NCBI GenBank assembly: GCA_013203185.1
Contig: JABMOS010000068.1
Span: 19,889 to 83,888 of the forward strand
Origin: Fidelibacterota bacterium
GTDB taxonomy: Bacteria; Fidelibacterota; UBA8477; JABMPR01
DNA: 64,000 bases
Direction: 5' to 3'
Shown here: piece by piece, positions 6,645-40,056 of the stretch
How the letters are laid out: each line of letters begins with the position of its first letter
Numbering within the stretch: position 1 is the first letter of the stretch
Position numbers and translations under genes: made by a program
Notes under the pieces: model-generated
What the model was told of the DNA's origin: nothing
What the model saw: only the letters and a program-made list of their open reading frames with translations
Databases searched by the model: none

Positions 6645-6653
6645 CTGAACTCA

Positions 6654-21500: not shown

Positions 21501-23146
21501 AAAACAATTCGTGAAAAGTCTGCTATGGGTTTGCTTTTAAAAATCTGATAGGGGATAAGGTCCTCACCAAATCTGTCCCGGGTATAGATAGTAAATGGCT
21601 TCTGGGGTTTGGTCCAGATATTCAACCCACCCAATCTTGCGCCAGCATCAATGCGAAATCCAGTCTCGGTATCCTGCTGGAAGTAGTGAATGGATACAGG
21701 AATTTCGCGCTGTTTGTATTCGTTCTCATAAATGCCTATTTCCCCATCCCAAAGGGTTGGCGGTTCGGCTACCAGGGAAATGGTTGGTAGGAAATGTTGC
21801 TCATTAATGAAGTAGGTCGCTGTCATGATTTCACCAGGCAGAATTCCAGCTTCAAATGCTCGGGCCTTCAAAACTGAGGTAGCATCAATGGAGATACTTC
21901 CAGAGTAGAGTGGGCTTGAGCTGGCAGGTCTTGACCCGTCTAAAGTGTAGTGAATTTGGGACTGGGGGGAAGTGGTTGAGAGTGTGACGCTAATAGATCC
22001 ATTGTGGAAACCGCTGGCTACTGAACTTTCTACTGCTGTGGTTTTAACCGTGCCTGCACTTGAAGGTGTTGAGTTTTCAGTCCCTGGGGTCGGCTCTCCG
22101 AAAAAGGTCCAACCCATGACTCCAGATGGGCGACCGAAGGATACATCTGTTACCTGTTCACCATACGATACATAGTCAACAATACTGGCCTCAGAATAGT
22201 TGATGCCCATGAGCTCAAGATCAAAGCTTATGTCAGAGCTGGTTTCACTTATCTGATGAATTTCTACAGCCAGACAGTTCTCTCCAACTAGAAGCTCGTT
22301 GGCAGGGATGGTGTATTCATAAAATGCATCTTCTTCATCAGAACTTATGGCCGTGCTGGCAAGGGTTTCGAAGGTGATGTCCCCACTGGGCATATTCGTT
22401 CGGATGACCTCATTTCCATTTAAATAAACCACAGCACCATCATCACGCTTGATGTTGGCTACGAGATTACTTAGAGCACTTGGATTGTTTGCCATAAAGG
22501 TTTTACGGAAATAGGTTGTGATATATTTCTGGTTGCTATCACCTCCATAGTCGAGGACAGTGGCTTCATCTCCATCTCCATAACCAAGCTCTGCCTGACC
22601 TTCAGCCCAACTGCCGTCATCATAATTATTCTCAATCCAGGAAGGGTCCAGGTTTGATCCATTGTCCACATACTTCCAGAATGATTCCGTGGGAATGAAA
22701 TTGGTTGTAGCCAGTAGATCCGCCTGAGCCAGAACCACTTCTTCACCGGATTTACTAAGTTTAAAATTCGTGTGGTAGTGGCGTGTAGAATAATCGTCAT
22801 ACGGCCAGGTTTCGCGGGTGTAAATTGAACCTGGTCCATCGTCAAAGTCATCTGCCCAAACCAGCAAATAACCTTGTGCTGGAATAGAGGCACCGCTGGG
22901 AATTCTCCACTTTAAAGGATCATTAAGATTATCGGACAGAAAATATCCATCTAATGATGCAGGAATATCGGAGGTGTTGTGGATTTCTATCCAATCATTG
23001 TAATCCCCAAAATCATACATTTCCGGGAACTCCCTCACATTAGAGGCGAGGAATTCATTAATCTGAAAATCCTGGCCCCAGATGGAGATGCTCAAACTCA
23101 AAGCCAGAATGATACCCAATGGATTATTGAGAGACAGTTTATGCAT
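18506..23146 (-). CDS. giant secreted CotH-domain protein (LTD - CHB_HEX_C-like - CotH - parallel beta-helix - LTD - T9SS/FlgD-Ig C-terminal domain)
   Basis: - Signal peptide after MHKLSLNN (ATG at 23146; the track ORF extends to 23209).
- Lamin-tail-like segments INEFLASN..DWIEIHN and INEFLASN..DWLELYNP.
- IHYTLDGSRP...LKARAF (chitobiase/hexosaminidase C-terminal-type domain).
- CotH core: FRNGGDDWEETLLRD...LFLNGEYWGIYNIREKY.
- PbH1-like repeats: NNRIYNF.., ITSNLIYHS.., ITRNLIVGC..
- C-terminal NYPNPFNPSTTIRYELP...GVYLVRI. Confidence 0.85.
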   Translation of the reverse strand: MHKLSLNNPLGIILALSLSISIWGQDFQINEFLASNVREFPEMYDFGDYNDWIEIHNTSDIPASLDGYFLSDNLNDPLKWRIPSGASIPAQGYLLVWADDFDDGPGSIYTRETWPYDDYSTRHYHTNFKLSKSGEEVVLAQADLLATTNFIPTESFWKYVDNGSNLDPSWIENNYDDGSWAEGQAELGYGDGDEATVLDYGGDSNQKYITTYFRKTFMANNPSALSNLVANIKRDDGAVVYLNGNEVIRTNMPSGDITFETLASTAISSDEEDAFYEYTIPANELLVGENCLAVEIHQISETSSDISFDLELMGINYSEASIVDYVSYGEQVTDVSFGRPSGVMGWTFFGEPTPGTENSTPSSAGTVKTTAVESSVASGFHNGSISVTLSTTSPQSQIHYTLDGSRPASSSPLYSGSISIDATSVLKARAFEAGILPGEIMTATYFINEQHFLPTISLVAEPPTLWDGEIGIYENEYKQREIPVSIHYFQQDTETGFRIDAGARLGGLNIWTKPQKPFTIYTRDRFGEDLIPYQIFKSKPIADFSRIVFRNGGDDWEETLLRDPMTGSLVKGMMDCGYMAYQPSALFLNGEYWGIYNIREKYNTRFFFENFGVDPDNIDHLEYGATQAGTQLLTIEGDQLAYNDFIAFVQNTDLDQDAAYHELSNRMNIDGFIDHVVMTLYCANTSWGHNREWWRPRGGDGKWQWLIVDVDRGFSPSNINTNLLDNLLDGYLLFQYLMGSDRFQNRFLQRAAAHFNNTFMAERIESIVDSLSNTIYDEMPRHIDKWGSLGGISSMTSWEDELNAIKTFAQNRSANLYNHFNNELNLDGTIEMNTATYLAEGGHILINGVPQLSENETGTYFKNQPIQLTAVPAPGYEVIGWNGISDAATITYGCETDTSFIALFQPSSGNILPSQIEENTTLLGNRTYYVSTNLLVPAGLTLTLEAGVDIRMPEQGHIIIDGQLVINGTNAAGVTIASNVDSGGERWGGISFSSESDTSRLDYLSLSGASKGIDPIIHRGAISGNNANLIIDHLDIQDVLFPIYIQGGSIKLLNSSLRCDFISDFINVKRGEVLIDNCRFYGSQAPDTDAIDLDGVESGVVSNNRIYNFDGPNSDGIDLGEGASNILITSNLIYHSSDKGISVGQQSTTTITRNLIVGCTWGVAVKDNSAALLLNNTYVNNEISLVCFEKNVGNGGGEAVERNSIYSNSLISTLFVDAFSSQTVTYSLSDSELLAGAGNLFSQPQFVDPALYNFELAIGSPCTDAGDPGDPEDSDGSPRDIGAYYTYSPDHYPFPIPGRYISFLKINEFLASNSSSNADESGEYDDWLELYNPTDETLDLSKLYLTDNPNNLTKWQFPEGSSIIGPGGFLLIWNDEDGSQGPLHANFKLSASGEFLALVDSNGLSIIDSLTFGVQTSDISWGRVPDGSNNWGMLTPTPGSTNQLLEVLSMPAIPQQFALHQNYPNPFNPSTTIRYELPEQAEVQVLIYDLRGRLIRTLVNASQTAGYKRLIWDGSNNRGEPVSAGVYLVRIVSSEYTKTRKMVLLK

Positions 23147-23331
23147 GATTTTTAATGATGGCGTATTCATAGATAGCATATAGTGTATATCCAAACCGTT
23201 TTCGTACAAGGATTTTAGCAGAAGAGCACTCGGGAAGAAATACCATTACTAAAGATCTTATGAAAACCATAAAATAATAAAAATAAAGAAAATAGGACCA
23301 TAAATGGAGTGATATCCCAGGGTGATTTGAC

Positions 23332-26046
23332 TCACCTCAGATACAGCATTTTGATTGTGTGTTCAAAGCCTTCAGTTGTGAGGCGACAAAAATAGACACC
23401 CGTGCTCACAGTTTGGCCCCCTTTATTTAATCCGGACCAATGGTATTGGTAATGCCCCATACTTTGATACTCATTCATAAGGGTAACGATCTCCTGCCCT
23501 CTAATATCATACACTTTGAGACTGACTTGGGCATCAAATGGAATCACATACGAGATCGTGGTTGTTGGATTAAATGGATTGGGATAATTCTGACGAAGCA
23601 CAAAAGTTTGGGGGTTTTGGTGCGAATTATCTTCTTCAACAGCGCTTGGATCCAGCATCTGAATTTTTACGGCATCTGCTCTCAAGACTGGACCCTGAGT
23701 GGTATTGCCAACATCATGGACTTCCAGATCAATGGGTACATCGGTGGGTAAGAAATAGGTCCCGAGACTAACCCATTGGCCACTATTGGCATTCTGATCC
23801 ATAAAGACAGAATCAATGGGGGCACCGTCAATTTTTAAAAGATACAACGCATTGTCACTTGAGTTGATGGTGGTTGGTACTATGTAACTGATCTCATAGT
23901 AACTTGGCTCTTCAGGCTCTAGACGAAACGAGGCTGAGGCTCCGGAATTCAGCCAGGAGTATCTACTGGACAATCCCCAGGCCTGTGCCACACTTGTAAA
24001 CCATTCCCCAGTTTCGCTGTAGGAATCCGTCTGCTCATTGTCTACCACATAGAATGGGTATTGAACATTTGCAGTAATAACAATATCCAGATCTGGGTGC
24101 ATGGGGTCATCACTGGAAATTCTTAGGGTATCCTCAAGGGGTCCCAAATCAAGAGGATGGAGGGTCAGGGGAATATCAATTTCACCCATGGCTTCTATTT
24201 CCATGGGCAGTGTCAGATCAACATTCACATGCTGGTTTATGCTTTCAATATTTTGAATGGATAAGGTGGAAGTACCTAGATTACTGATCCTCAGATTCTG
24301 AACCGAAGTGCGATCCAGACTGATCTCACCATAATTAATGTTTTGACTGGAGAGATGAATATCTCTCTGGCGAACTCTTGCTGTGAGTTTAATGGCATCT
24401 ACAGTGAGATTTGCACCCATCACAGGTTGGGTGATGTCGCTGAACAATTCTACTACCTGGTTTTGTCCTGCATTCAGAGGAACAGTAGCCAAATAAATCC
24501 ACTCATGGGCGGGTAGGGGAGCCATAAGAGTTACGGTATCAATGCTGGTGTTTGAGTGAATCACAGCTTTGAGAGGAAATGGTGTTGTGTCAGTCGTGGG
24601 AACCTGGATAAAGACGTGATACAGAGAGGCTTCCTGGATATCTGGTGACCATGAGACATGGATAGTATTATTTTCATCCGTTGAGGCGGTGCGGGCATCA
24701 ACTCCCCAGACAGCATTGTCTGTATTTGTCCAAACACCACGTAGCTCGTTATAGCCAATATCTTCATTATCCATATATATATCGTCGGGAATCAGATTGA
24801 CAAATTCCGTGGTGAGGTTTCCAGAAGTATCTGTGGCTGCCACACCCAACTTTGCTAGTTCACCTGGGAAAGGAATGATTTCCGTGGTCCATGTGAGATC
24901 TGATTGCTGGATACACTCAATTTTGCCATAGCTCTCATCCCTGTACTTCACTGCCACATAGGGTTGAGGCATATATAAAGGTTCATTGGAGGATATTTGA
25001 TAGCTCCTGTTGTCCTCTGTCCCTTGACTGGTGACAGTGATCTCAGGAGGTGTTCCGTCAATGGTCCCACGCCAGAGCTGCATGGCCTCAATGGCTGTAC
25101 AGTATCGGAAATCAACATCAGGATATAAGTCGGCTGCGGCATGTGCCAGTTGATTCATCTCGGCCATTTTTTCCGGGAAATCACTTTCGGGCAAGTGTGC
25201 CCAGAGACAGGCAACCTGGTCTGTGCCATTACTGGCAGCTTCAAAGATATTGTTCATAATGCTTGAGCCGGCAACCTGTCCGAAAGAAACAGAGCGGACA
25301 TTCCAGGCAGGCCCATCTCCAGGTACCATGTAATTATCCAGGGAGGGCTGAAATGGTACAAAGGTGGACGGTGATTCAGACCAATTATAAGTATTGTCCA
25401 GGGGTTCTTCTACATCGACATGGTTTGCTGGCCAGGCGTTGTGCATACTATAAGGCAGGATTTCATTGAGATAGTGTTGCCATTCATTATCCATAAAATG
25501 CCAACCACTGCGAAATGAAACGGGGAAGACATCCGCTTCCAAAAGAAATTGAGCCAGGGTTACATCAAAATCATCCCTGGATTCTCCAAAGGTGAGGGAC
25601 TGATTCCAAAAGTACATCCCATCCTGATCATAGTCAGACCAGAAAAAGGTATGATAATGAAGTGATAGTTCATCTCCATTGATGATGACGTTCTCGCCAT
25701 GATATTTCTTCATCAAATACATGGTCATGATATTGGGGACAGGGAAGTTCCGGTTTGTGGCATAGCGGAAGATGTTTCCTGCCATCATCCACCAGGTCAT
25801 TTTCATGGGTTGGCCGTATGAATCCACGAATTGGGCACGGAATGCTGGATCCATGACTTCATATGTATTCATTGATGGATCAGTATAAAGAGCCTGGTTG
25901 TAGGTGTTGTGGTAGCGATTAACAGCCATGCCGTCCCAGATGGCCGTATCTGAGCCCAGGACGAGGTAAACTGTGGCGGATTCAAGTTGGGATACTCCGA
26001 AAATTAAGATCAGGACCAGGTTGAGAATGTGTTTTGATGTTTTCAT
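23332..26046 (-). CDS. secreted 904-aa protein of unknown function with a choice-of-anchor-D/HYDIN-like beta domain and a T9SS/FlgD-Ig C-terminal domain
   Basis: Signal peptide MKTSKHILNLVLILIFGVSQLES. A central segment INYGEISLDRTSVQNLRISNLGTSTLSIQNI is typical of choice-of-anchor D domains. The C-terminus is NYPNPFNPTTTISYVIP...GVYFCRL. The roughly 300-aa N-terminal domain is unrecognised. Confidence 0.7.
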   Translation of the reverse strand: MKTSKHILNLVLILIFGVSQLESATVYLVLGSDTAIWDGMAVNRYHNTYNQALYTDPSMNTYEVMDPAFRAQFVDSYGQPMKMTWWMMAGNIFRYATNRNFPVPNIMTMYLMKKYHGENVIINGDELSLHYHTFFWSDYDQDGMYFWNQSLTFGESRDDFDVTLAQFLLEADVFPVSFRSGWHFMDNEWQHYLNEILPYSMHNAWPANHVDVEEPLDNTYNWSESPSTFVPFQPSLDNYMVPGDGPAWNVRSVSFGQVAGSSIMNNIFEAASNGTDQVACLWAHLPESDFPEKMAEMNQLAHAAADLYPDVDFRYCTAIEAMQLWRGTIDGTPPEITVTSQGTEDNRSYQISSNEPLYMPQPYVAVKYRDESYGKIECIQQSDLTWTTEIIPFPGELAKLGVAATDTSGNLTTEFVNLIPDDIYMDNEDIGYNELRGVWTNTDNAVWGVDARTASTDENNTIHVSWSPDIQEASLYHVFIQVPTTDTTPFPLKAVIHSNTSIDTVTLMAPLPAHEWIYLATVPLNAGQNQVVELFSDITQPVMGANLTVDAIKLTARVRQRDIHLSSQNINYGEISLDRTSVQNLRISNLGTSTLSIQNIESINQHVNVDLTLPMEIEAMGEIDIPLTLHPLDLGPLEDTLRISSDDPMHPDLDIVITANVQYPFYVVDNEQTDSYSETGEWFTSVAQAWGLSSRYSWLNSGASASFRLEPEEPSYYEISYIVPTTINSSDNALYLLKIDGAPIDSVFMDQNANSGQWVSLGTYFLPTDVPIDLEVHDVGNTTQGPVLRADAVKIQMLDPSAVEEDNSHQNPQTFVLRQNYPNPFNPTTTISYVIPFDAQVSLKVYDIRGQEIVTLMNEYQSMGHYQYHWSGLNKGGQTVSTGVYFCRLTTEGFEHTIKMLYLR

Positions 26047-26143: not shown

Positions 26144-26707
26144 TTATCTTAACGTGAGATGTGTGACCAAAATCCTTAATCCTATAACCAGTAAAATAAT
26201 CCCACCCAGAATTTCAACCCGTTGACCCAGCCATTGCCCGGCAGCCTTACCAATCCTGGTTGATGCCGCTGAGAGTATGGCAGTAATCACACCGATGAGG
26301 AGGCAGGGGAGCCAGATATTTACATTGAGCATGGAAAAGCTGAGACCAGCGGCCAGGGCATCTATACTGGTAGCTATACTCAGGGTTATTAGGGTCCAAC
26401 CCTTGGATGGATCTACAATGAGCCTGGCATTATCAGGGACGAATCCAGAATAAATCATTCTGCCGCCGACGATTGCCAGGAGAATAAAGGCGATCCAATG
26501 ATCCCATGCACTCATGTAATCCACCACAGTGGAACCTAATAGCCAACCTAGCAAGGGCATAAGCGCCTGGAAGAGTCCAAAGTGAAAAGCGAGACGAAAA
26601 ACAGCTCTTTTGTCTTTCACAAATCCTGCAGCAGCAGCTGTCATTGAGACTGCTGAGGCATCCATTGCCAGTCCGATTGCGATAAGGATCATCTCCAGAA
26701 TAGACAT
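26144..26707 (-). CDS. mntP: manganese efflux pump MntP
   Basis: 187 aa. It has IAIGLAMDASAVSM and a second ATSIDALAAG half-repeat in a 6-helix layout, the MntP/DUF204 signature. Confidence 0.85.
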   Translation of the reverse strand: MSILEMILIAIGLAMDASAVSMTAAAAGFVKDKRAVFRLAFHFGLFQALMPLLGWLLGSTVVDYMSAWDHWIAFILLAIVGGRMIYSGFVPDNARLIVDPSKGWTLITLSIATSIDALAAGLSFSMLNVNIWLPCLLIGVITAILSAASTRIGKAAGQWLGQRVEILGGIILLVIGLRILVTHLTLR

Positions 26708-26965: not shown

Positions 26966-27772
26966 TTAAGAAGGGTTTTTGTCTATAGCTCCAGATACCT
27001 TGCGCCGTAGAAATCCCTGGAAGAACGTATTGAGGAAGGGAATCATCCCCAGTTTCTTAGGGATGTAAACAGTACTTTTATCGGCTTCAATAGCGAGAAT
27101 GATTTGATTAACACAGTCCTCAAGGCTTACGGACTCACTGGTATGCTTCTTTGAAGATTTCGAGAGTTTTTTACCGTCAGCTCCAAAAGCATTGTCTCTA
27201 AGATTTGTACCTCTGATCCAGCTCAGGACAGCCTCGAGAATAGAGACTTGTCCTTTCATCTCCATGTCTAGAGTAGATAGGAATCCATGCAGTGCATGTT
27301 TTGATGCGACATAGCCTGAATGGTTGGGGAAACCCATAATAGCTTGAGCAGTTGAACAACTCACAATTTTCCCATTGGTCTTTTTCAGATGGGGAAGGGC
27401 TGACTGGCAACAGTTCACAGCACCATGATAATTGACATCCATCAAAGTCTTAAAAAAAGTAATGTCAGTAATGTCTTCAAACTTAGCCCACATACTGACG
27501 CCGGCATTCAGGATGAGACCATCCACTTTGCCGTATACCTCTACTGCTTGTTTTACCATGTTTTGACAAGCATCCAGGTCAGTGATATCAGTTTGGACAG
27601 CGATTGCAGAACCAGCTGATGCTACAATAGAATCCGTGACTCTTTGGAGTACATCTGCCCGACGAGCGGCACAAACGATCTGAGCACCCTTCTGGGCAAG
27701 CACAACAGCCAGTTGTTCTCCAATACCAGAAGAAGCTCCAGTGATAATGAAGACTTTACCCGCTACGTTCAC
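26966..27772 (-). CDS. classical short-chain dehydrogenase/reductase; candidate acyl/alkyl-DHAP reductase by context
   Basis: SDR motifs TGASSGIG, NAG and S...YVASK are seen. It is the last gene of the AGPS operon, 23 nt after the AGPS stop. The substrate assignment is contextual inference only. Confidence 0.85.
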   Translation of the reverse strand: MNVAGKVFIITGASSGIGEQLAVVLAQKGAQIVCAARRADVLQRVTDSIVASAGSAIAVQTDITDLDACQNMVKQAVEVYGKVDGLILNAGVSMWAKFEDITDITFFKTLMDVNYHGAVNCCQSALPHLKKTNGKIVSCSTAQAIMGFPNHSGYVASKHALHGFLSTLDMEMKGQVSILEAVLSWIRGTNLRDNAFGADGKKLSKSSKKHTSESVSLEDCVNQIILAIEADKSTVYIPKKLGMIPFLNTFFQGFLRRKVSGAIDKNPS

Positions 27773-27795
27773 TTCTGATCCTGCTTATTTAGGGT

Positions 27796-29565
27796 TTAAT
27801 CAGAAAACACATTGTTGGCGACACCAAAAATATTTTTCGGGTCATGGGCCGTTTTCACCTGTTTGAGCATTTCAATACTTGCCGGGGAAATAGTTCCCTT
27901 CATAAAATCTTTCCGTAGTTTTCCAACCCCATGATGATGGGATATAGAACCACCGGCTTCCATGATGGCCTCCCTCATTGCATATTCGATTGAATTAAAA
28001 ATCTCAATGGGATTCTTAACACCTTTGATGCTCATGGCAAACATAAAATAGATACAGACTCCCGTATGATAGATCTGAGGTACACGATATGAGATATAGG
28101 GCTTGCCTGGGATGTTATGCTTTTGGTGAAGTTCTTTAATTTTATTGGTTGCAGCTTCACATACTTCATTCAGTTTGCTCCAGGGAACCGACGTTTCCAT
28201 GGTTTCACCAATTATACGATACCTCGTCATAAAGTCTCTGATGTAGGCGATGGCAAAAGTCAGGTTATAGCCCTTCTTGCCATTTTCAGCGCCGCCAATC
28301 ATACCATTATACTTCTTGGTTAATCTTTTTAAGGTTTTCTGTTGCAAAGCAACTTCATCCTTGGAACCCTCTAATTTGAAGGAGGTTACCACCATTTTGT
28401 AGGGATCGAATTTTTTCACATTCAACACGACGAACTTTTCAAGTTTCTTGATCCAAACCTTCATACCTGTTGCTTTGGGATTCAATGCTTGACCAAAACG
28501 GAACTGGGCATTATCCATGAGACGTGCACTGGCAGGTACGGCACCACTCTTCGATAATTCATACATAAAGGCTACACCGGTCTCCCAGTCGTGAAACAGG
28601 GCAGAATTATAATCGGATGATTCTGGGAGTGTATGCACTTTCAAAGTGGCTTTGGTGATGATTCCAAAATTACCTTCAGATCCTAAAAGCATATTCTGCG
28701 TACTCACGCCAATAGAAGCACGTGTAATTGGATCGACCTGCTCCACAACCCCATTGGGAGTGATCATGGTTACGTTTTCAACAATGTCTTCAATATTTCC
28801 GTAGCGATTTTTTTTCATCCCACTGGCATTGGTTGAAATCCAACCTCCTAGGGTAGATAGTTCGATACTGTCTGGTTCATGTCCAACCGTGAGACCTTTG
28901 ACTTGTAGGAGCTCTTCCAGTTTGCTGCCGAGGATACCGGCCTGGACAACTACGCGACGGTTTTCCAGATCAATGGATTCGATTTGATTCATTCGTCGAG
29001 TGTCTACTGCGACAACCATCCTCTTTTCAAATTGAGGGATTTGCAGGGCGTTGCTAACACTTGTCCCACCTCCATATGGGATGAGGCAAATATCATGTTC
29101 AATGGCCAGGTCAATCAATTTTTGAGTTTCGTCTTCTGACTCGATGTAGAAGACCATGTCAGCTACTTTATCGACTTTATCGAAAACAACCTTATATATT
29201 TCATCGGTGGTTTGGCCAGCGCTATGCATAAGTCGCTCTGAATCACCAAAGGTATAACGGTCCTCGGGAAACGTGGCTTTAACTGCGTCTGCGAAAGCTT
29301 GGTTGATTTGGGCTTTCTCTACAGGTTTGTCGTCTACTTCAGGCAATACGTCATCTACATCAACGGTCATATCCAACATCTCTTCAACATAAGGGATAAA
29401 ATCCGGCATATCGAAGCCACAAAGATCATAGCGATCTCCGGTCATGCTTACGGTCCGGTCGCTATTCAGTATGAATTCTGAATCTTTATAACCCCATTTA
29501 TGTCCCCAGTTGTCATCGTTTACGGCATAAAATTTTTCTTTGTTGGGAGGTGTACTATTTTTCAT
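27796..29565 (-). CDS. alkyldihydroxyacetonephosphate synthase (AGPS)-like FAD-linked oxidase
   Basis: 589 aa. The N-terminal WGHKWGYKDSEFILNSDRTVSMTGDRYDL parallels the animal AGPS N-terminus (..WNGWGY.DS.F..). It has a VAO/PCMH FAD-binding core. The C-terminal GGSISHHHGVGKLRKDFM...DPKNIFG reproduces the AGPS HHH active-site motif. Confidence 0.85.
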   Translation of the reverse strand: MKNSTPPNKEKFYAVNDDNWGHKWGYKDSEFILNSDRTVSMTGDRYDLCGFDMPDFIPYVEEMLDMTVDVDDVLPEVDDKPVEKAQINQAFADAVKATFPEDRYTFGDSERLMHSAGQTTDEIYKVVFDKVDKVADMVFYIESEDETQKLIDLAIEHDICLIPYGGGTSVSNALQIPQFEKRMVVAVDTRRMNQIESIDLENRRVVVQAGILGSKLEELLQVKGLTVGHEPDSIELSTLGGWISTNASGMKKNRYGNIEDIVENVTMITPNGVVEQVDPITRASIGVSTQNMLLGSEGNFGIITKATLKVHTLPESSDYNSALFHDWETGVAFMYELSKSGAVPASARLMDNAQFRFGQALNPKATGMKVWIKKLEKFVVLNVKKFDPYKMVVTSFKLEGSKDEVALQQKTLKRLTKKYNGMIGGAENGKKGYNLTFAIAYIRDFMTRYRIIGETMETSVPWSKLNEVCEAATNKIKELHQKHNIPGKPYISYRVPQIYHTGVCIYFMFAMSIKGVKNPIEIFNSIEYAMREAIMEAGGSISHHHGVGKLRKDFMKGTISPASIEMLKQVKTAHDPKNIFGVANNVFSD

Positions 29566-30286
29566 AAAGTTCCGTTGCCTTTTTGGTAATGGCTAGTTCC
29601 AGCGCTGATATCATTTTTTTTGAAGCTTCTTTTAAATCATTCTCGCTAGGAGTATCAGATTTAAGAAATTTTTCTGGATAAATTGGTTCAAGAATATAGA
29701 CCTTAATACCTGTGGGACGCATTAAAAATTTTCCACGAGGCCATGCTTTATGGGACCCATAAATAACAGCAGGTAATATTGGAGCTCCCAGATCCAGAGA
29801 AAATCTGGCTGCACCCTTCTTAAATGGCAATATTTTGCCTGGATTGCCTCGTGTTCCTTCAGGAAAAAATATGAGGCTCCTCTGTTGGTAGCTCATGAAC
29901 GTTTCGCACAATTTGATAGTATCTTTGATTGGGAATTGTCCTTCTCCTTTGACCCTTCTGTCAATGGGAATCAGGTTCATGACTGTATTTATCAGGGTCC
30001 GTCTGGTCCAACTATCAAACCAATAGTCCTTGGCCGCCATCATTCCAAAATGATTGAAGCTTTTCTGTGCCGCGGCCGAAAGAAGTGCAACATCCATATG
30101 GCTGTTGTGATTGCTGCAAAAAATAAAGGATGAATCAGGAATGTTTTCACGACCATAAACTTTCAGGGGCGTGTAAAATGTAAAGACTAACTTACTGTAA
30201 TAGTAAAATAAGATTTTCCAGATTTTATAGTAAAACGCCTGTTTCCCCAGCAAGTAGGAGAATTTTGGATTGTCAAGAACATCCAT
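29555..30286 (-). CDS. PlsC/GNPAT-type glycerolipid acyltransferase (LPLAT superfamily)
   Basis: HX4D motif (CSNHNSHMD), FFPEGTRG motif, and an N-terminal hydrophobic anchor. It overlaps the AGPS start by 11 nt and lies 8 nt downstream of the HMGR-like gene. Confidence 0.85.
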   Translation of the reverse strand: MDVLDNPKFSYLLGKQAFYYKIWKILFYYYSKLVFTFYTPLKVYGRENIPDSSFIFCSNHNSHMDVALLSAAAQKSFNHFGMMAAKDYWFDSWTRRTLINTVMNLIPIDRRVKGEGQFPIKDTIKLCETFMSYQQRSLIFFPEGTRGNPGKILPFKKGAARFSLDLGAPILPAVIYGSHKAWPRGKFLMRPTGIKVYILEPIYPEKFLKSDTPSENDLKEASKKMISALELAITKKATELYEK

Positions 30287-30294
30287 GTGTGACT

Positions 30295-31455
30295 CTATTT
30301 TCTACCATATTTCATATGTGCATCTGTCCAGGTATGGGAGCCAATGGCACAAATGAGCGAGATTTCAAGAGATAGGGTCGCGGCGGCAATAATTTCTGCT
30401 AGTTTCCTGGATGAATGCTCACCTTCTGCGCATCCCAGCAATTCCAGATTTCGCTGCTGCATTTTCAATCGTGTTCCACCTCCGACAGTACCGACAGTGA
30501 GTGAGGGGAGTGTCATCTTGAACTTGATACCTTCCTCAGTCTTCTCCAGTCCCAGATGAGCAATGCTGTTTTCAGCAGCACAAGCTGTGTCCTGACCTGT
30601 GGCCAGATAGATCGCTGTGAGAGCGTTTGAAACATGCAAGCCATTCCCATGGGTTCCAGCTAAGCTCGATATGGTTGGGAAAAAACTCCAGGAATCGAAC
30701 AAGATATCGGGATCCATTTTTAGAATTCTTCGCATGACACTATACTTAATGGTGGTTTCAGCTGAGACTGCATGACCGCGACCCAGAAGCATATTTCGGG
30801 TGGAAGCTTTTTTATCACTGTTGAAGTTGGACTCCAGGAAGTAATTCTGGCCAGTCTCTTTTTGAATGTATTCACAGGCAACCTGAGCTGCCAGAGTAAC
30901 CATGTTTTGTCCAGCTGCGTTGTTGGTGTCCAACACCAAATCCAGCACAACATAATTTTGGATTGTATATTGATCAATTCTCAGGACTTTTCCATGTTTG
31001 GTGGTGCTTTCTGCCACCGCCATGATTTTGTCCTGGTTCTCTGTAACCCATTGTTGGAACTTGACACTTTCCAGAATATCATCAAGAATAAATACGGGTG
31101 CCCGAGATAACTCCTGCCTGAAATGGCGTACGGTGGTTCCACCGCTTACCGTGGAGGCATAAATGCCGCGATTCATGGAGGCTGCCAGTGACCCTTCAAG
31201 TGTACACAGGGGAATGACAAAGTCACCGTTTGCATAGGTGCCGTTGATGCTCAGTGGACCAACTACAGCCATGGGTATGTTCATGGTTCCTACATGGTGC
31301 TCGATGATTCCTTTTAAATCCTCAACGTCATCAGTAAGCGTGTCGTCGATTTCAACACCTGTGAACTCCTTGACCCATTCTTTGCGAGCTATTGAATCTT
31401 CCATGCTGTATCCACGTGGAAGATGCGAGCCGAGCCCGTTTTTTTCTTCAGACAT
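30295..31455 (-). CDS. HMG-CoA reductase family (class I-like, short form) NAD(P)H-dependent thioester reductase; substrate uncertain
   Basis: The 386-aa product aligns by eye with the class I HMGR catalytic core: IPMAVVGPL..VIPLCTLEGSLAASMNRG, SNFNSDKKAS (cf. SGNYCTDKKPA), NALTAIYLATGQD, GTVGGGT and the C-terminal ..DAHMKYGR. It diverges at otherwise invariant motifs (EHHVG versus ENVIG; NAAGQNM versus DAMGMNM). It is the first gene of the AGPS operon. Confidence 0.8.
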   Translation of the reverse strand: MSEEKNGLGSHLPRGYSMEDSIARKEWVKEFTGVEIDDTLTDDVEDLKGIIEHHVGTMNIPMAVVGPLSINGTYANGDFVIPLCTLEGSLAASMNRGIYASTVSGGTTVRHFRQELSRAPVFILDDILESVKFQQWVTENQDKIMAVAESTTKHGKVLRIDQYTIQNYVVLDLVLDTNNAAGQNMVTLAAQVACEYIQKETGQNYFLESNFNSDKKASTRNMLLGRGHAVSAETTIKYSVMRRILKMDPDILFDSWSFFPTISSLAGTHGNGLHVSNALTAIYLATGQDTACAAENSIAHLGLEKTEEGIKFKMTLPSLTVGTVGGGTRLKMQQRNLELLGCAEGEHSSRKLAEIIAAATLSLEISLICAIGSHTWTDAHMKYGRK

Positions 31456-31775
31456 ATATCACCCCATATAAATGAAAGTTGTAATTTTTAATTTGTCCCG
31501 ATTCTTTATGTATATAATAATAATCATGATAATATCAATCACCAAATGTCTCAGATATATGGACTCAACAATCCATTTTATCACACACAATATCAATGCT
31601 TTGGTGGAGGTTATTTCTACAAGTTACTCCCGCCTTAAACCAACCAAAGTCCTTTTTAGGGTGAAAGTAGGGAATCTCCCGTTCCAGAAATAGGGCTCCC
31701 CTCATGAGAGAAAGGTCTGGTGACTCTATATTCATGTCACGTTTTTCACCAACACCTTACTGAGGAGAGATAAAA

Positions 31776-32171
31776 ATGGAAATCCAATTGCCCCCAAAGA
31801 AAAAAACTTTATTGTTCGTTGAAGATGACCCAGGCTGGAGGTTGATAATAAGCTACATGGTCAAAAATATGGACATCGAAGCTCTCTACGCAGAGTCAGG
31901 TGAAGATGCATTGCGGATTATCAAAGACCGGAAGGATGTTGAGATTATGTTTCTAGATGTATCTCTGGGGAATGGCATCTCAGGTATGGATCTGGCTGAA
32001 CAAATCAAATCCAATCAATGCTATAAGAATATTCCCATGATTGCCATGACTGCTTATGAAAAACAGAGTATTGAGGGTTATCAAGAGAATGGCTTCACCG
32101 GGTATCTCCAAAAGCCCTATTCTGCAGCGCAATTTGGAGCCGTTATTGATGGAAACAACCATCTGAACTAA
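31776..32171 (+). CDS. single-domain response regulator (receiver only)
   Basis: 131 aa with LLFVEDDPG, FLDVSLG (phospho-acceptor Asp), MIAMTAY and LQKPY. GGAGAG lies upstream of the ATG, and a terminator follows. Confidence 0.8.
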   Translation: MEIQLPPKKKTLLFVEDDPGWRLIISYMVKNMDIEALYAESGEDALRIIKDRKDVEIMFLDVSLGNGISGMDLAEQIKSNQCYKNIPMIAMTAYEKQSIEGYQENGFTGYLQKPYSAAQFGAVIDGNNHLN

Positions 32172-32238: not shown

Positions 32239-32398
32239 GTTCAGATTATTATCATCTTTCGATTGGTTGGGATAATCTTGTAAATATTGAAACCTTTGAT
32301 TCAGCTATGTCCAGACTAGATTTCATGAGCGAAATCATCACTAATTTGACGTTAAATGAGTGAAACTGCTTCATTAAAAATTGACTGAAAAGGTATAT

Positions 32399-35134
32399 AT
32401 GTTAAATAAAATAATTTCTATCCTCCTCCTGGGACTCAGCACCTTATTCGCATCCACACCTGCTAAACCAGGTGTGATTCCATCTGAAGTGTTGATAGAG
32501 CAGATCGCAATCATGTCTGAAACATACGGGCAAGGTGGTCTAGCTGCCAAAATGCAAGGTATTAGGGCAGCGAATATCCAGCATGCAGAAAATGGGACCC
32601 GTGATTTGAGAGAAGATATCTATATGAGTTTTCCCGTCATCATGGGCTCATATTCTGATTATGATGATGCGACAAATGTTATCAATCTGCTTCAATCAGA
32701 ATTATTTGATGGGCCCTGGCCGAGCGTCACCATGGCAGAACATTATGAGGAAATGTCACTTGGTCAATTTCACCTTTCTGGGACAGTATATGGTTGGTAT
32801 GAGTTAGGTGAGACTGGCCAGCATTATGGTGGTACGGATAATGGTTTCGATGGGGGTGTCGGTGATTTTCTGCATGAGTCACTTGACCTTTCTGATATAG
32901 AGATAGATTTTAGAGAATATGACAATGATGGTCCTGATGGAGTACCAAATTCTGGTGATGATGATGGGGTTGTTGATGCTGCCTTTTTTGTACATTCCGG
33001 CCCAGATGGCGCGGCTGGAGGTCCTTACATCTGGTCTCATCGATGGTCCTATTCTGCAGCTTCTGGTACTGGGTCTGCCTACACGACCAATGATACTGGA
33101 GCAAACGGAAGTCCTATAACTGTTGATGATTACATTATGCAACCTGCAGAAGGCTCTAATGGTGGATTGATAGAGATCGCTGTTTTCTCACACGAATTTG
33201 GCCATGCTATTGGCCTTCCAGATCTGTATGATACCGATTATTCTTCAGATGGCATAGGCAGATGGTGCCTTATGGCTGGCGGCACTAACCTCCTACCCAA
33301 TAGTAGTCCGCCACATATGTCGGTTTGGTGCAAGGAAATGTTGGGCTGGGTTATTCCTGTGGTTCTAGATGCCAATATTGACAGCATTTCAATTCCGCCC
33401 ATTGTTCCAACCGGTTTCGCTCTCAAGGTATGGAAGGACGGGGAAGTTGATCCCTGGGAATCTGGATATGGCCAGGGACTTGAGGTAGGTCGTGAATATT
33501 TCCTTATAGAAAATCGGCAACATATAGGCACTGACCAACATCTGGTGGGCACCGGATTGATAATCTATCATGTAGACAACACCCAATGGGGCAATTCGGA
33601 TGACGAGCATCGATTGGTCGACATTGAACCTGCCAATGGTCAAGAGGGCGGAACAAACCCTGGACAGACCTGGTCTGCAACTTCTGAGAATCAATTGTTT
33701 GATTTCCAAACCATTCCCTCTTCAGCATCCTATGCATTTGAGAATACTGAGGTGGCCATATTTAATTTTGTTGAAAATGATTCAAGCATTATCGCTTCTG
33801 TGGAGGTCAATGAGGCTTTTCCCCACCTTGGTCTCGTTGATTTTATCCTTGCTGACGCCAATGATGATGGCTTTCTCTCACCGGGTGAGAGTGGGCAGCT
33901 TAGCCTGACGCTGATCAATTATGGTCTCCTGGCTACAGATGTTTCTGCCACCATCATTGAAGATAATTCGGCTTTTAATTTTACCACTGCAGCCATTGGT
34001 TTTGAGAACATTCTATCTGGTACTGCGGAGGTCTCAACGGCCCCTTTTGAGTTCACCATGGCCTCCGATTTTGAGTCTGGCACTAGCACGCTGCGATTCC
34101 AGGTGAATAATTCCACCTCTGATATCATTGATACCCTCTCATTTGATTTGATAATTGGTGATCCACAAGTTGCAGTAGTGGATGCTGATGGCGCCGTTTC
34201 AGGGGATATGGATGTTCAGGACTATTACACCCAGGCTCTGATTGATAATGATATTGTTTATACTATCTGGGATGTAGCCCTTGATGGGTTGCCCACAGAG
34301 GAGTGGTTGTTAGGCAGACCCAATGTTATTTACTTCACCGGAAGTGCTGGCTTGCCCTTAACTGTGCCTGTGATCAATCTCTTGTCAAGCTACCAGGATG
34401 GCGGCGGCAGGCTCTTGCTCACGGGTCAGGACCTTACAGATGGCGATGAAGTTCAAGCCGCCTTTTTAAATGAATATTGTGCAGTTGATTTTGTAGAGGA
34501 GCAAACCGTAAACCCACGGTATTTATTCGGAAATCCTGATCATGGAATCATGACTGCAGCTGATCAGTATCGAATCAACACCATTTATGGTGCCAATAAT
34601 CAAACCAGTCCTGATGTTGTTGAACGTTTATCCCATGGGACCAAATTGTTTCAATATCCACGACTGGATGATCAGGCTGCTGGTGTCACCACCATTCAAA
34701 ATGGCTATAAAACTATCTTCCTCGCATTTGGATTTGAGGCCATTGCTGGTCTAGAGGATGAGGGCCCTGAGGTACGAGCAGATCTCATTCAAAGATTCCT
34801 GGAATGGTTTAAGCTGGATTATGTGGGTATCGATTCAGAGAACATTCTAAAGGATATGACACCAGGTATCAGCCACTTCTATCCCAATCCTTTTAATCCT
34901 ACTGTCAATATTGGATATGTGCTGCCTGAACGGGTTGAGTTAACCCTTACCGTCTACGATATTGCAGGCAGGGAGGTTACTCAGCTGTTAAGTGGTGATC
35001 AATCGGCTGGGAGCCATGAAATTCAATGGAATGGTGTGGATGCTTCAGGTCTTTCTGTGAGTACAGGCGTGTACTTCTGCCGTTTGGAAGTAGGGGAGAT
35101 AAGTCATACCATCAAAATGGTCTATCTCAAGTAA
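32399..35134 (+). CDS. secreted M6 (immune inhibitor A-like) zinc metalloprotease with T9SS/FlgD-Ig C-terminal domain
   Basis: Signal peptide MLNKIISILLLGLSTLFAS (ATG 32399; the track ORF starts at TTG 32381). Zinc motif HEFGHAIGLPDLYD, as in M6 peptidases. C-terminus FYPNPFNPTVNIGYVLP...GVYFCRL. Confidence 0.8.
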   Translation: MLNKIISILLLGLSTLFASTPAKPGVIPSEVLIEQIAIMSETYGQGGLAAKMQGIRAANIQHAENGTRDLREDIYMSFPVIMGSYSDYDDATNVINLLQSELFDGPWPSVTMAEHYEEMSLGQFHLSGTVYGWYELGETGQHYGGTDNGFDGGVGDFLHESLDLSDIEIDFREYDNDGPDGVPNSGDDDGVVDAAFFVHSGPDGAAGGPYIWSHRWSYSAASGTGSAYTTNDTGANGSPITVDDYIMQPAEGSNGGLIEIAVFSHEFGHAIGLPDLYDTDYSSDGIGRWCLMAGGTNLLPNSSPPHMSVWCKEMLGWVIPVVLDANIDSISIPPIVPTGFALKVWKDGEVDPWESGYGQGLEVGREYFLIENRQHIGTDQHLVGTGLIIYHVDNTQWGNSDDEHRLVDIEPANGQEGGTNPGQTWSATSENQLFDFQTIPSSASYAFENTEVAIFNFVENDSSIIASVEVNEAFPHLGLVDFILADANDDGFLSPGESGQLSLTLINYGLLATDVSATIIEDNSAFNFTTAAIGFENILSGTAEVSTAPFEFTMASDFESGTSTLRFQVNNSTSDIIDTLSFDLIIGDPQVAVVDADGAVSGDMDVQDYYTQALIDNDIVYTIWDVALDGLPTEEWLLGRPNVIYFTGSAGLPLTVPVINLLSSYQDGGGRLLLTGQDLTDGDEVQAAFLNEYCAVDFVEEQTVNPRYLFGNPDHGIMTAADQYRINTIYGANNQTSPDVVERLSHGTKLFQYPRLDDQAAGVTTIQNGYKTIFLAFGFEAIAGLEDEGPEVRADLIQRFLEWFKLDYVGIDSENILKDMTPGISHFYPNPFNPTVNIGYVLPERVELTLTVYDIAGREVTQLLSGDQSAGSHEIQWNGVDASGLSVSTGVYFCRLEVGEISHTIKMVYLK

Positions 35135-36809: not shown

Positions 36810-37233
36810 AATGGTATGTGCCCAAATAATGGGAAATGATGCAACCATATCTATCGGTGGTTCAAACGGCCACTTTGAATTAAATACTTTTAAACCGCTT
36901 ATTGCCACTAATGTATTACAATCAGCTCGTGTATTTATTTTTACCATAATTGCTCCGTAGGCATTCGTCCCAATATCCCCAGAATGGAACAACATCTTGA
37001 AAATTCTCTAATGCTGGTAACGGCTTTCAATACGCATATAGGTTATGAAAAAACCGCTAAAATTGTAAAGAAAGCGCAGGCAGAGAATAAAACATTGCAG
37101 CAAGCAGCGGTAGAACTCAAGCTTGTGACCAACAAGCAATTTGATGAATGGGTGAAGCCAGAAGATATGCGTGGAGCAATGGATTAGATGGTGTTCTATC
37201 CACCTTCTCCAGACAAACAATTAGATCTTCATA
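36810..37233 (+). pseudogene. fumC 3'-terminal fragment (degenerate duplicate of 56591..57030)
   Basis: Direct nucleotide alignment by eye with the 3' end of the intact fumC plus about 45 bp beyond its stop. The outer blocks are about 90% or more identical (roughly 9 mismatches in the first ~120 nt). The middle ~70 nt is degraded, with a length change and an in-frame TAG. ORF 36984..37187 encodes ..[59 protein letters not shown].., matching the FumC C-terminus. The N-terminal ~340 codons are absent. Confidence 0.9.
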
Positions 37234-37415: not shown

Positions 37416-37964
37416 ATGGTATTTTCCAAATCGAGGGGCATGATGATGAGTAATAATCCGACCATAGCCGAACCGTTACCCAACGATATTCAGATTCTAA
37501 ACAGCATGCGCCAGATCATTCGTGCCATTGATGTACACTCACGGAAACTTAAGGCCCAGTATAACATAACTGGACCTCAGTTAATCTGCCTGGGAATCAT
37601 ACAAGCCAGCGGAAGTTCGACAGTGACCAAGATCGCTCACGAGGCTCATCTCAGCACCAGCACTGTCGTTGGCATTCTGGACCGCCTCGAGCATGAGGCC
37701 TACATTCTGCGTGAACGGGACCGTGTCGACAGACGAAATTGGAATGTTCACCTTACCGACCAGGCTGATCACTTACTGAAGATGGTTCCACCATCACTCC
37801 ATTACGGACTGTTGAACGCCCTACAATCCTTGCCTGAAGGCGAACAGGAAGTAATTGCCAACGCTTTCAAGCGAGTGGTGTCGCTTATGGGCGCAGAGAA
37901 TTTGGGTACAGCCCTCCTCCAGAAGATTACCCCCGTCGATAAGAGTAAGCCACCCAGTGAATAG
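37416..37964 (+). CDS. MarR family transcriptional regulator
   Basis: The sequence ITGPQLICLGIIQASGSSTVTKIAHEAHLSTSTVVGILDRLEHEAYILRERDRVDRRNWNVHLT is a winged-helix MarR pattern. The start is ambiguous among several Met codons. Confidence 0.8.
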   Translation: MVFSKSRGMMMSNNPTIAEPLPNDIQILNSMRQIIRAIDVHSRKLKAQYNITGPQLICLGIIQASGSSTVTKIAHEAHLSTSTVVGILDRLEHEAYILRERDRVDRRNWNVHLTDQADHLLKMVPPSLHYGLLNALQSLPEGEQEVIANAFKRVVSLMGAENLGTALLQKITPVDKSKPPSE

Positions 37965-40042: not shown

Positions 40043-40056
40043 CAGAAGGATAAGCC

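Follow-up and report, generated by a model that had tools for sequence, protein, structure and literature searches.

A compact four-gene operon in a Fidelibacterota bacterium predicted to supply alkyl-ether lipid precursors through AGPS and an FcrA-type reductase

The minus strand of a 64-kb stretch of DNA from a Fidelibacterota bacterium (the window) carries four co-directional genes (26966-31455) for a reductase with the HMGR fold, a PlsC-type acyltransferase (AT), an alkyl-dihydroxyacetonephosphate synthase (AGPS) and an SDR. Judged from sequence and gene context, this operon probably makes precursors of alkyl-ether membrane lipids by the AGPS route, with the alcohol provided by an FcrA-type reductase. 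A sequence-only reading of the same DNA had proposed that the genes form a module for ether lipids made via alkyl-DHAP, in which an HMGR-fold enzyme takes the slot of the fatty-alcohol reductase (FAR), and that this would be a new enzyme function. The module is supported in silico by the FcrA-type pocket, the tree position of the reductase, synteny, the presence in its slot, in other genomes, of a FAR or an ElbD-like FAR megaprotein, and a neighbourhood in which no mevalonate genes were found. The claim of a new function does not hold, since the FcrA type was described in 2025 and is therefore not new in this operon (Grossi et al. 2025, PMC11948995). The novelty lies in how compactly the operon is built, in the FAR/FcrA displacement and in a family of AGPS-linked SDRs, a candidate bacterial alkyl-DHAP reductase.

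Gene order and conservation in relatives

In gene order, the four genes are spaced by an 8-nt gap, an 11-nt overlap and a 23-nt gap, and the ORF list bears out both the positions and the spacing given in the sequence-only reading. The motifs it had quoted are all found in the translations: HNSHMD and FPEGTR in the acyltransferase, NWGHKWGYKDSEF and SHHHGVGKLRKDF in the AGPS-like protein, and TGASSGIG and YVASK in the SDR, which also has NAG. HMM searches matched each of its domain calls (PF00368, PF01553, PF01565/PF02913 and PF00106; Table 1).

Table 1. Features of the operon and its upstream region, in positions of the window
Feature	Position	Strand	Details
FcrA-type (class-I HMGR fold) reductase, predicted	30295..31455	-	386 aa; PF00368 4.9e-98
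PlsC-superfamily acyltransferase	29555..30286	-	243 aa, hydrophobic N-terminus; PF01553 1e-22
AGPS orthologue (alkyl-dihydroxyacetonephosphate synthase)	27796..29565	-	589 aa; PF01565 1.4e-35, PF02913 1.1e-34
Classical SDR	26966..27772	-	268 aa, GTG start; PF00106 8.5e-45
Divergent intergenic region, presumed operon promoter	31456..31775		320 bp, between the operon and the response-regulator gene
Response-regulator gene	31776-32171	+	Divergent from the operon

Apart from the divergent intergenic region, the ORF list leaves no non-coding stretch of notable size upstream of the four packed genes. This region holds one weak sigma-70-like site (minus strand, 31554-31526; 9 of 12 matches). Because the scan showed no enrichment over shuffled sequence and promoters in the FCB group may look different, a promoter in this region is presumed by inference only. 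No terminator-like sites were found on the minus strand inside the operon, and the four genes most likely form a single operon.

An identical four-gene block with unrelated flanks occurs in 24 species-level Marinimicrobia genomes, counted among the best 80 AGPS loci from species-representative genomes (24/80). The block is also conserved in metagenome contigs, in which the reductase is 66-78% identical and four unrelated sets of genes flank the operon. Given this recurrence with unrelated flanks, the arrangement is not due to chance. The closest named homologues belong to Candidatus Marinimicrobia/Neomarinimicrobiota, now Fidelibacterota, within the FCB group, in agreement with the earlier attribution of the DNA to an FCB-type marine bacterium. 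Marinimicrobia/SAR406 are a widespread deep-ocean bacterial group.

The first position of the operon can be filled in more than one way. In one Marinimicrobia genome (L064), a canonical FAR (PF07993 and PF03015) occupies the reductase slot and is followed by AT-AGPS-SDR. In Poribacteria (L026 and L030), an ElbD-like FAR-AMP ligase-ACP-AT megaprotein fills the reductase and acyltransferase slots together, followed by AGPS-SDR. FAR and the FcrA-type reductase are equivalent in this operon slot.

The HMGR-fold reductase

The reductase is a bare catalytic core, to which neither Lad nor ACP nor any other domain is fused. FcrA-like domains elsewhere are fused to a fatty-acyl-AMP ligase and ACP, or to ACBP. 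The catalytic HMGR residues are retained (E87/K215/D289/H380), and its score against TIGR00533 (HMGR, NADPH) is 272 bits, well under the curated equivalog cut-off of 441.8. Three pocket positions named by Grossi et al. as setting FcrA apart (PMC11948995) are altered (S684 to E208, K735 to H228 and L862 to W376), so that they read E/H/W where three characterised HMGRs have S/K/L. In a distance (NJ) tree with no outgroup, canonical HMGRs split from the rest at 93% bootstrap, with the reductase on the non-HMGR side in a clade of 98% bootstrap. It has none of the six HMGR-specific residues and 7 of the 16 FcrA-specific ones, and a Promineifilum-genus FcrA of validated architecture shows the same profile (0/6 and 7/17). 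Changes specific to its own clade are His228 at the Lys735 position and Asn179, which replaces the Asp in the DAMGMN motif. Since overall similarity does not discriminate (the Promineifilum FcrA proxy is 40% identical and the archaeal HMGR 6HR7 39%), the FcrA assignment rests on the pocket residues, the outgroup-less distance tree and context. No mevalonate genes were found within the 64-kb window. Overall, an FcrA-type reductase in the fatty-alcohol-reductase slot is well supported in silico.

FcrA activity has been shown for one Chloroflexota member, Pb-FcrA (CUS01882.1) of Ca. Promineifilum breve, and predicted for Natronomonas pharaonis. The same study explicitly suggested FcrA as a supplier of alcohol to AGPS or PlsC-like ether-lipid enzymes, and stated that bacteria with an FcrA-type homologue only are without the mevalonate pathway (Grossi et al. 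2025, ISME J 19:wraf035, PMC11948995).

The predicted route and its alternatives

By sequence comparison, the AGPS gene is a true AGPS orthologue. It aligns with guinea-pig AGPS (4bby) end to end and almost without gaps (465 bits; 40% identity over the aligned region), against 98 bits for the next non-AGPS chain, and its active site is intact, with R419, Y578 and H615-H617 (the HHH loop) conserved. The SDR matches NF004825 (PRK06181) at 237 bits, above the cut-off of 215. Its orthologues (37-50% identity, 193-276 bits) immediately follow AGPS in five groups, namely Marinimicrobia, Poribacteria, Acidobacteriota, Planctomycetota and Chloroflexota, whereas other SDRs in those AGPS loci score 70-78 bits against it. 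Both the SDR and the AT are members of AGPS-linked subfamilies spread across phyla, and the SDR is a putative acyl/alkyl-DHAP reductase.

The route would be oxygen-independent, as in animal peroxisomes and Myxococcus, and would start from DHAP and the long-chain acyl thioesters of housekeeping metabolism. Its product would be 1-O-alkyl-sn-glycerol-3-phosphate, from which alkyl-ether membrane lipids of the plasmanyl type are built. The FcrA-type reductase would use two NADPH to reduce a C14-C18 acyl-CoA to a primary alcohol via Glu/Lys/Asp/His, and the changes in its pocket (Ser684 to Glu, Lys735 to His and Leu862 to Trp) would shut out HMG-CoA. The PlsC-like acyltransferase would acylate DHAP to 1-acyl-DHAP, AGPS would put the fatty alcohol in place of the acyl chain to give 1-alkyl-DHAP, and the SDR would reduce the ketone to yield 1-alkyl-G3P, leaving housekeeping PlsC and head-group enzymes to finish the lipid. 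What the acyltransferase, the SDR and the reductase act on is predicted, as is lipid production itself. Bacteria make acyl-ACP de novo and the operon has no acyl-CoA synthetase gene, which makes the true thioester substrate of the reductase uncertain.

In the literature searched, no report of ether lipids from the Marinimicrobia phylum was found. Among 134 Black Sea Marinisomatota MAGs, Agps homologues were reported in 49 and Ger homologues in 45 (2025, PMC11868695). Homologue presence is no guarantee of lipid production, since Pontiella has elbD homologues but ether lipids were not detected (PMC11868695).

The acyltransferase could have another role within the same pathway. As an AGPAT-type enzyme, it would acylate the sn-2 position of 1-alkyl-G3P or a lyso-lipid, with 1-acyl-DHAP supplied by a different enzyme or by a promiscuous activity of the PlsY/PlsB type. 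This would fit its PlsC size and motifs, its best NCBIfam match (TIGR00530, the AGP acyltransferase domain model), its only PDB relative (T. maritima PlsC, a 1-acyl-G3P acyltransferase; 65.6 bits) and the missing extra domains of eukaryotic GNPAT. However, it scores far under the PlsC equivalog cut-offs (24 versus 501), and Marinimicrobia relatives have a separate PlsC-like gene near the operon. It also groups with AT domains, FAR-fused ones among them, that are associated with AGPS or ElbD-like proteins in other phyla (80-109 bits) over this second PlsC-like gene (47-62 bits). AGPS needs acyl-DHAP, which the usual bacterial route to phospholipids is not known to supply. The AT domains of ElbD-like/FARAT proteins are themselves treated as GNPAT homologues (PMC13012113). 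An sn-2 role is unlikely on this evidence, and a DHAP acyltransferase with a GNPAT-like role, forming 1-acyl-DHAP, is the favoured assignment.

For the reductase, another thioester may be the substrate (acyl-ACP, or a short, branched or hydroxy-acyl-CoA), or the reaction may stop at the aldehyde, so that the AGPS alcohol comes from elsewhere or the product is an unusual alkyl-DHAP derivative. The absence from its clade of the Lad/ACP domains of validated FcrA, the clade-specific His228 and Asn179, an identity of only 40% to the Promineifilum proxy and the missing acyl-CoA synthetase are compatible with this, as are the 12 of 59 putative FcrA modelled with pockets too small for C14 (PMC11948995). 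It is nevertheless very unlikely: all four catalytic residues for both reduction steps are retained, the otherwise identical operon of L064 has an alcohol-forming FAR with a Sterile domain, and the 40% identity of AGPS to the mammalian enzyme, with its intact active site, points to the usual long-chain alcohols as substrates. The mevalonate pathway is in use in some FCB bacteria, and the NCBI and JGI annotation of the gene is hydroxymethylglutaryl-CoA reductase, with 39% identity to a characterised archaeal HMGR. An orthodox HMGR that adjoins AGPS by coincidence is, however, barely tenable and already largely refuted by the lack of all six HMGR-specific residues, the changes at three HMG-contacting positions, the score below the equivalog cut-off and the split from canonical HMGRs. 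Moreover, the adjacency is kept in 24 species while flanks vary, FAR takes its place in L064, mevalonate genes were not found in the 64 kb, and bacteria with only an FcrA-type homologue are stated to be without that pathway (PMC11948995). The preferred reading remains the AGPS route with alcohol from an FcrA-type reductase.

Comparison with known systems

The window's reductase and FcrA share the class-I HMGR fold, the conserved catalytic Glu/Lys/Asp/His, Glu for Ser684, the loss of Lys735 and a bulky aromatic residue for Leu862, as well as a place in the family tree apart from the HMGRs, a context without mevalonate genes and a predicted role in fatty-alcohol supply. However, the one FcrA that has been validated carries a Lad domain at its N-terminus, whereas the window's enzyme has neither Lad nor ACP. 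At the Lys735 position, FcrA has a small residue and the window's reductase a His, in addition to Asn for the DAMGMN Asp. The FcrA gene adjoins WS/DGAT or sits nine genes from AGPS, in contrast to the tight AGPS operon described here. With canonical class-I HMGRs (human 1DQ8/1DQ9; Methanothermococcus thermolithotrophicus 6HR7), the reductase shares fold, catalytic-domain length, catalytic tetrad, GTVGGGT and the C-terminal helix carrying the catalytic His, at 39% identity to 6HR7. It differs from them in the replaced HMG-binding Ser684, Lys735 and Leu862, the absence of HMGR-specific residues (0/6), a score under the curated HMGR cut-off and the lack of mevalonate-pathway neighbours.

The ether-lipid genes of Myxococcus xanthus, the AGPS operon and elbABCDE, were reportedly described by Lorenzen et al. 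in 2014. The operon MXAN_1676-MXAN_1675-MXAN_1674 comprises AGPS, the FAR-acyltransferase fusion 'FARAT' and a third gene, and deletion of the AGPS-FARAT operon blocks ether lipids (Trinidad-Barnech et al. 2026, PMC13012113). The sequence-only reading was thus correct in placing a myxobacterial AGPS gene beside an acyltransferase gene, the neighbour MXAN_1675 being this fusion (PMC13012113). In both systems, as predicted for the window, a bacterial AGPS gene is co-transcribed with an acyltransferase and with a reductase function that yields fatty alcohol, and the route to ether lipids is O2-independent and passes via alkyl-DHAP. In M. xanthus, a Rossmann-type FAR (PF07993) is fused to the acyltransferase, whereas the window has a separate HMGR-fold protein and a stand-alone 243-aa acyltransferase, in the order reductase-AT-AGPS-SDR, ending with a PRK06181-type classical SDR.

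The eukaryotic peroxisomal pathway uses FAR1/2, GNPAT, AGPS and DHRS7B/PexRAP or yeast Ayr1. The window's operon resembles it in its clear AGPS orthologue, in a classical SDR as the last enzyme and, as predicted, in the same four chemical steps. It departs from the eukaryotic pathway in having a non-homologous HMGR-fold enzyme in place of FAR, a minimal PlsC-like acyltransferase without the extra domains of the 680-aa GNPAT, and all four genes in one operon, with no organelle.

Gene order and surroundings of the operon

The operon consists of four minus-strand genes that encode, in order, a reductase with the HMG-CoA reductase (HMGR) fold, an acyltransferase (AT), an AGPS and an SDR. The first two lie 8 nt apart, the AT and AGPS genes overlap by 11 nt, and 23 nt separate AGPS from the SDR gene. 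The sequence-only reading had proposed that this block reproduces the alkyl-DHAP ether-lipid pathway, with the HMGR-family enzyme in the place of the canonical fatty acyl-CoA reductase (FAR, PF07993). Its gene coordinates were borne out by the ORF list, all of the motifs it quoted were found in the translations, and all four proteins match the families it had named for checking by Pfam (PF00368, PF01553, PF01565/PF02913 and PF00106). An acyl-CoA synthetase gene is absent from the four-gene operon, so that the acyl donor may be a CoA or an ACP thioester.

Genes of the operon and other features of the window, with positions in the window
Feature	Position	Strand	Evidence or remark
HMGR-fold reductase, 386 aa	30295-31455	minus	ORF list; PF00368 4.9e-98
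Acyltransferase (AT), 243 aa	29555-30286	minus	ORF list; PF01553 1e-22
AGPS, 589 aa	27796-29565	minus	ORF list; PF01565 and PF02913
SDR, 268 aa, GTG start	26966-27772	minus	ORF list; PF00106 8.5e-45
Asn179 codon of the reductase	30919-30921
mntP	26144-26707		downstream of the operon
Response-regulator gene	31776-32171		divergent from the operon
Very large secreted protein	18506-23209	minus
Very large secreted protein	23332-26046	minus
Very large secreted protein	32381-35134	plus
AlaDh_PNT_N, saccharopine dehydrogenase and aldehyde dehydrogenase genes	5301-9551	plus
Aldehyde dehydrogenase ORF	17122-18171	minus	profile positions 116-461 only
Fumarase C-terminal domain gene, 67 aa	~36984-37187
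Full fumarase gene	55578-56984
Trehalose-related genes	37416-42398	plus

Upstream, the operon is bordered by a 320-bp divergent intergenic region followed by the response-regulator gene, and downstream by a 259-nt gap followed by mntP. Both neighbours were considered as operon members and rejected, because neither is kept beside the block in relatives. An Rfam scan of the whole window returned zero matches, and a riboswitch is therefore absent from the gap before mntP. Promoter and terminator sites were no commoner than in shuffled sequences, in a scan that is uninformative for an organism of the FCB group. The G+C content is even over the region, and the closest named homologues belong to Candidatus Marinimicrobia/Neomarinimicrobiota, now Fidelibacterota, of the FCB group.

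The operon is flanked by genes for three very large secreted proteins, one of the CotH/LTD/beta-helix type (1,567 aa), one with Golvesin_C and one with Peptidase_M6. Each terminates in a Por_Secre_tail/T9SS sorting domain (NYPNPFNP...), as would suit an organism of the FCB group. Elsewhere in the window, genes for a MarR regulator, a DUF5752 protein, a TreT-type glycosyltransferase, a trehalose-phosphate phosphatase and a GT20 trehalose-6-phosphate synthase form what looks like a trehalose synthesis cluster, while a row of AlaDh_PNT_N-domain, saccharopine dehydrogenase and aldehyde dehydrogenase genes resembles a lysine (saccharopine) catabolic set. Another aldehyde dehydrogenase ORF covers part of its profile and either lacks its N-terminal part or has had its start wrongly called. 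This ORF and a small gene that encodes the fumarase C-terminal domain alone, in a window that also holds a full fumarase gene, are possible gene fragments.

The reductase as an HMGR or an FcrA

A monophyletic clade of class-I HMGR homologues, termed FcrA, has been shown to consist of fatty acyl-CoA reductases (Grossi et al. 2025, PMC11948995). The purified enzyme of Ca. Promineifilum breve (Pb-FcrA, CUS01882.1) is NADPH-dependent and accepts acyl-CoA from C14 upwards. It has no activity on HMG-CoA and is insensitive to simvastatin, and hexadecanol accumulates in E. coli expressing it (PMC11948995). FcrA proteins keep the catalytic residues Glu559, Lys691, Asp767 and His866 of HMGR; Leu862 is exchanged for a bulky residue, Ser684 is replaced (by Glu in N. 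pharaonis) and Lys735 is lost (PMC11948995). The sequence-only reading had presented fatty alcohol formation by an HMGR-family protein as a new enzyme function, a claim that does not stand, as FcrA function was published in February 2025 (Grossi et al., PMC11948995).

The window reductase could be a canonical class-I HMGR or an FcrA. Its residues E87, K215, D289 and H380 align to the four catalytic residues of three solved HMGRs, and its best solved relative is the HMGR of Methanothermococcus thermolithotrophicus (253 bits). Overall identity was rejected as a classifier, at 40% to a Promineifilum FcrA proxy versus 39% to the archaeal HMGR. Both the pocket and the model score speak against a canonical HMGR. 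E208, H228 and W376 occupy the positions of Ser684, Lys735 and Leu862 (S/K/L) in human, plant and archaeal HMGR structures, and the protein reaches 272 bits against TIGR00533, the NADPH-type HMGR model, whereas the curated equivalog cut-off is 441.8. The pocket carries the FcrA substitutions; at the Lys735 position, for which 'generally small' residues have been described, the protein has the larger His228, yet this is not Lys.

Supporting an FcrA, the same assignment emerged from a neighbour-joining (NJ) tree of 178 sequences and 370 trimmed columns, built from 150 representatives from a 1.84-billion-protein library, the reductases of AGPS loci, close relatives and three PDB HMGRs. Pb-FcrA was represented by a congeneric proxy, a Promineifilum-genus orthologue that is 100% identical to MBX7250511.1 and has the architecture of the validated enzyme (Lad plus catalytic domain). 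A search with the Lad-type FcrA of L068, an AGPS locus of Promineifilum-type Chloroflexota, and the listing of cluster members found MBX7250511.1 and other Promineifilum-genus orthologues, and did not find CUS01882.1. In the tree, a distance tree without a class-II outgroup, 14 sequences with the canonical signature, including the three PDB HMGRs, split from the 164 others with 93/100 bootstrap support. The latter include both the window reductase, which sits in a 37-member clade (98/100 bootstrap), and the Promineifilum FcrA.

A strict diagnostic-column test (70% consensus in both groups) was set aside, as it yielded merely three columns because FcrA-like sequences are diverse. Group-specific residues, defined with the window's own clade left out, were used instead. 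The window reductase carries 0/6 HMGR-specific and 7/16 FcrA-specific residues, the same profile as the Promineifilum proxy (0/6 and 7/17), whereas the figures for the three HMGRs are 5/5 and 0-3 of 16-18, respectively. Together with the NJ split, these residues place the reductase in the distinct FcrA clade, and they are decisive for its predicted membership on the FcrA side.

None of the approximately 45 genes of the 64-kb window belongs to the mevalonate pathway. Bacteria with an FcrA-type homologue alone lack this pathway, according to Grossi et al. (PMC11948995).

FcrA-like catalytic domains elsewhere are fused to a fatty-acyl-AMP ligase and ACP, or to an acyl-CoA-binding domain, and these fusions fit long-chain acyl substrates. 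Among the representative family proteins, fusions to an APH/EcKL-type kinase, DUF3419 or ACBP are also frequent (P0145, P0154, P0160, P0187, P0216, P0151). The operons of three Marinimicrobia relatives (L004-L006) have a divergent DUF3419 gene on their upstream side, and their SDR gene is immediately followed by one for a class-I methyltransferase (L004 5382-7237, 12500-13315). The links of FcrA to the kinase and to DUF3419 may reflect further lipid-modifying steps. The window clade also reads NAAGQN, with Asn179 in place of the Asp of the DAMGMN motif, which is kept in nearly all other FcrA-like and HMGR sequences.

AGPS, its partners and exchanges in the reductase slot

The AGPS aligns nearly without gaps and end to end with guinea-pig AGPS (465 bits, query 22-584 on chain 94-656), including the AGPS-specific N-terminal region, and scores 253 bits against the Dictyostelium enzyme, far over other FAD-linked oxidases, the best of which is LctD at 98 bits. 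Active-site positions were taken from the mutant entries 4bc7 and 4bca (R419H, Y578F), and Arg419, Tyr578 and the His615-His617 loop are kept in the alignment (ASARLMD, CIYF, SHHHG). Judged by its sequence, the 589-aa protein is a true AGPS orthologue (alkyl-DHAP synthase, EC 2.5.1.26).

The AT carries the PlsC-superfamily motifs HNSHMD (HX4D) and FPEGTR, scores far under the PlsC equivalog cut-offs and has T. maritima PlsC as its sole solved relative. AT domains associated with AGPS or ElbD in other phyla (FAR-AT/ElbD-like proteins and AGPS-adjacent ATs) match it at 80-109 bits, compared with 47-62 bits for the second PlsC-like gene of Marinimicrobia. The SDR has the classical motifs TGASSGIG, NAG and YVASK, scores 237 bits against NF004825 (cut-off 215), and finds generic SDRs as PDB neighbours, many of them 11beta-HSD1 entries at about 82 bits. 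In five phyla, the SDRs whose genes come immediately after AGPS share 37-50% full-length identity with it (193-276 bits), compared with 70-78 bits for other SDRs of the same loci. By these differences in bit score, the AT and the SDR belong to AGPS-linked subfamilies. From the logic of the pathway, the AT would act on DHAP, in line with its kinship to AGPS-associated ATs, although it may instead acylate the sn-2 position of 1-alkyl-G3P. By the same logic alkyl-DHAP is the presumed substrate of the SDR, as supported by its conserved adjacency to AGPS in five phyla.

The four-gene order, which the sequence-only reading had proposed to check in relatives, is conserved. Contigs with reductases 78%, 74%, 70% and 66% identical to that of the window all repeat this order within wholly different surroundings. 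A scan by AGPS alignment, with one genome per GTDB species, gave 557 relatives, and the complete reductase-AT-AGPS-SDR block was present in 24 of the best 80 of these 557 loci (16 named Marinimicrobia, 7 'uncultured bacterium' and TMED217). Two more Marinimicrobia loci among these 80 end at the 5' side before the full block is visible. Also within the best 80 loci, AGPS-SDR is kept in Acidobacteriota, one Planctomycetota genome and some Chloroflexota, and AGPS stands alone in most Chloroflexota. In two Chloroflexota loci, one of them L068, an FcrA gene lies 2-3 kb upstream of AGPS. In two loci (L025 6480-7959, L039 6856-8399), the FcrA-type gene is present as two overlapping ORFs, perhaps because it is a pseudogene with a frameshift or because the assembly is faulty.

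The reductase slot can also be filled by other proteins. For example, Marinimicrobia strain TS1B10-1 (locus L064) keeps AT-AGPS-SDR, and a 563-aa canonical FAR (PF07993 and PF03015) replaces the HMGR-fold gene, preceding the AT gene with a 14-nt overlap; the ATs of this FAR-type operon and of the window are 43% identical. In a Poribacteria locus (L026) and in L030, a 1,407-aa ElbD-type FAR-AMP ligase-ACP-acyltransferase fills both the reductase and AT slots and is followed by AGPS-SDR. Of the in-silico evidence that the HMGR-fold protein acts as a FAR, this displacement by non-orthologous proteins is the strongest. The presence of a FAR or an ElbD-like megaprotein in its slot lends indirect support to the predicted reduction of long-chain acyl-CoA to alcohol by the window reductase.

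Ether-lipid synthesis in Marinimicrobia and known systems

A broader reading, for which we consider the case evenly balanced, is that Marinimicrobia/SAR406 routinely make 1-O-alkyl ether glycerolipids via an oxygen-independent FcrA-AT-AGPS-SDR operon. The FAR/FcrA swap would then amount to an experiment of nature, proof that ether-lipid synthesis can use either of two unrelated folds, and the AGPS-linked SDR would fill the vacant place of the bacterial alkyl-DHAP reductase. In dark and oxygen-poor ocean waters Marinimicrobia/SAR406, an almost uncultured phylum, rank with the most abundant bacteria. They are a possible source of alkyl-glycerol ether lipids, which serve geochemists as biomarkers of uncertain origin. 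The AGPS-linked SDR family provides a candidate bacterial alkyl-DHAP reductase, and the four-gene operon offers a compact unit, expressible in E. coli, for testing the whole bacterial alkyl-DHAP route. Thousands of database entries for proteins like the reductase bear the label 'hydroxymethylglutaryl-CoA reductase'. On FcrA-type proteins, this label would falsely imply a mevalonate pathway in metabolic reconstructions from MAGs.

The bacterial AGPS route and the enzyme families involved are already known; what is new is the architecture of the operon and the phylogenetic setting in which it occurs. In Myxococcus, a single transcript carries AGPS and a FAR-acyltransferase fusion (PMC13012113). 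Agps homologues were reported in 49/134 Black Sea Marinisomatota MAGs, with neighbouring genes unmentioned (PMC11868695), and a 2026 preprint on ether lipids of sponge symbionts searched for agps and elbD and not for FcrA. A compact operon of the order reductase-AT-AGPS-SDR was not found described in the literature, nor were the FAR/FcrA swap and an AGPS-linked SDR family, and the operon appears to be undescribed so far.

Grossi et al. suggested that some FcrA may provide the alcohols of ether lipids, and their examples are Coxiella, where a plsC-like gene adjoins fcrA, and Pb-fcrA, which has an AGPS gene at a distance of nine genes (PMC11948995). Their supplement never mentions Marinisomatota, Marinimicrobia, SAR406 or AGPS. 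The operon sharpens and supports this published FcrA-AGPS hypothesis, and does not represent a new kind of enzyme. If it works as inferred, it would be the first tight genetic link between FcrA and AGPS, where Grossi et al. had loose co-occurrence only. A looser neighbourhood of this kind is seen in L068 (3605-9891), which encodes a Lad-domain FcrA, a DegV fatty-acid-binding protein, a PLP-dependent decarboxylase on the opposite strand, AGPS and HlyD-type proteins, in agreement with the remark of Grossi et al. on Ca. Promineifilum breve.
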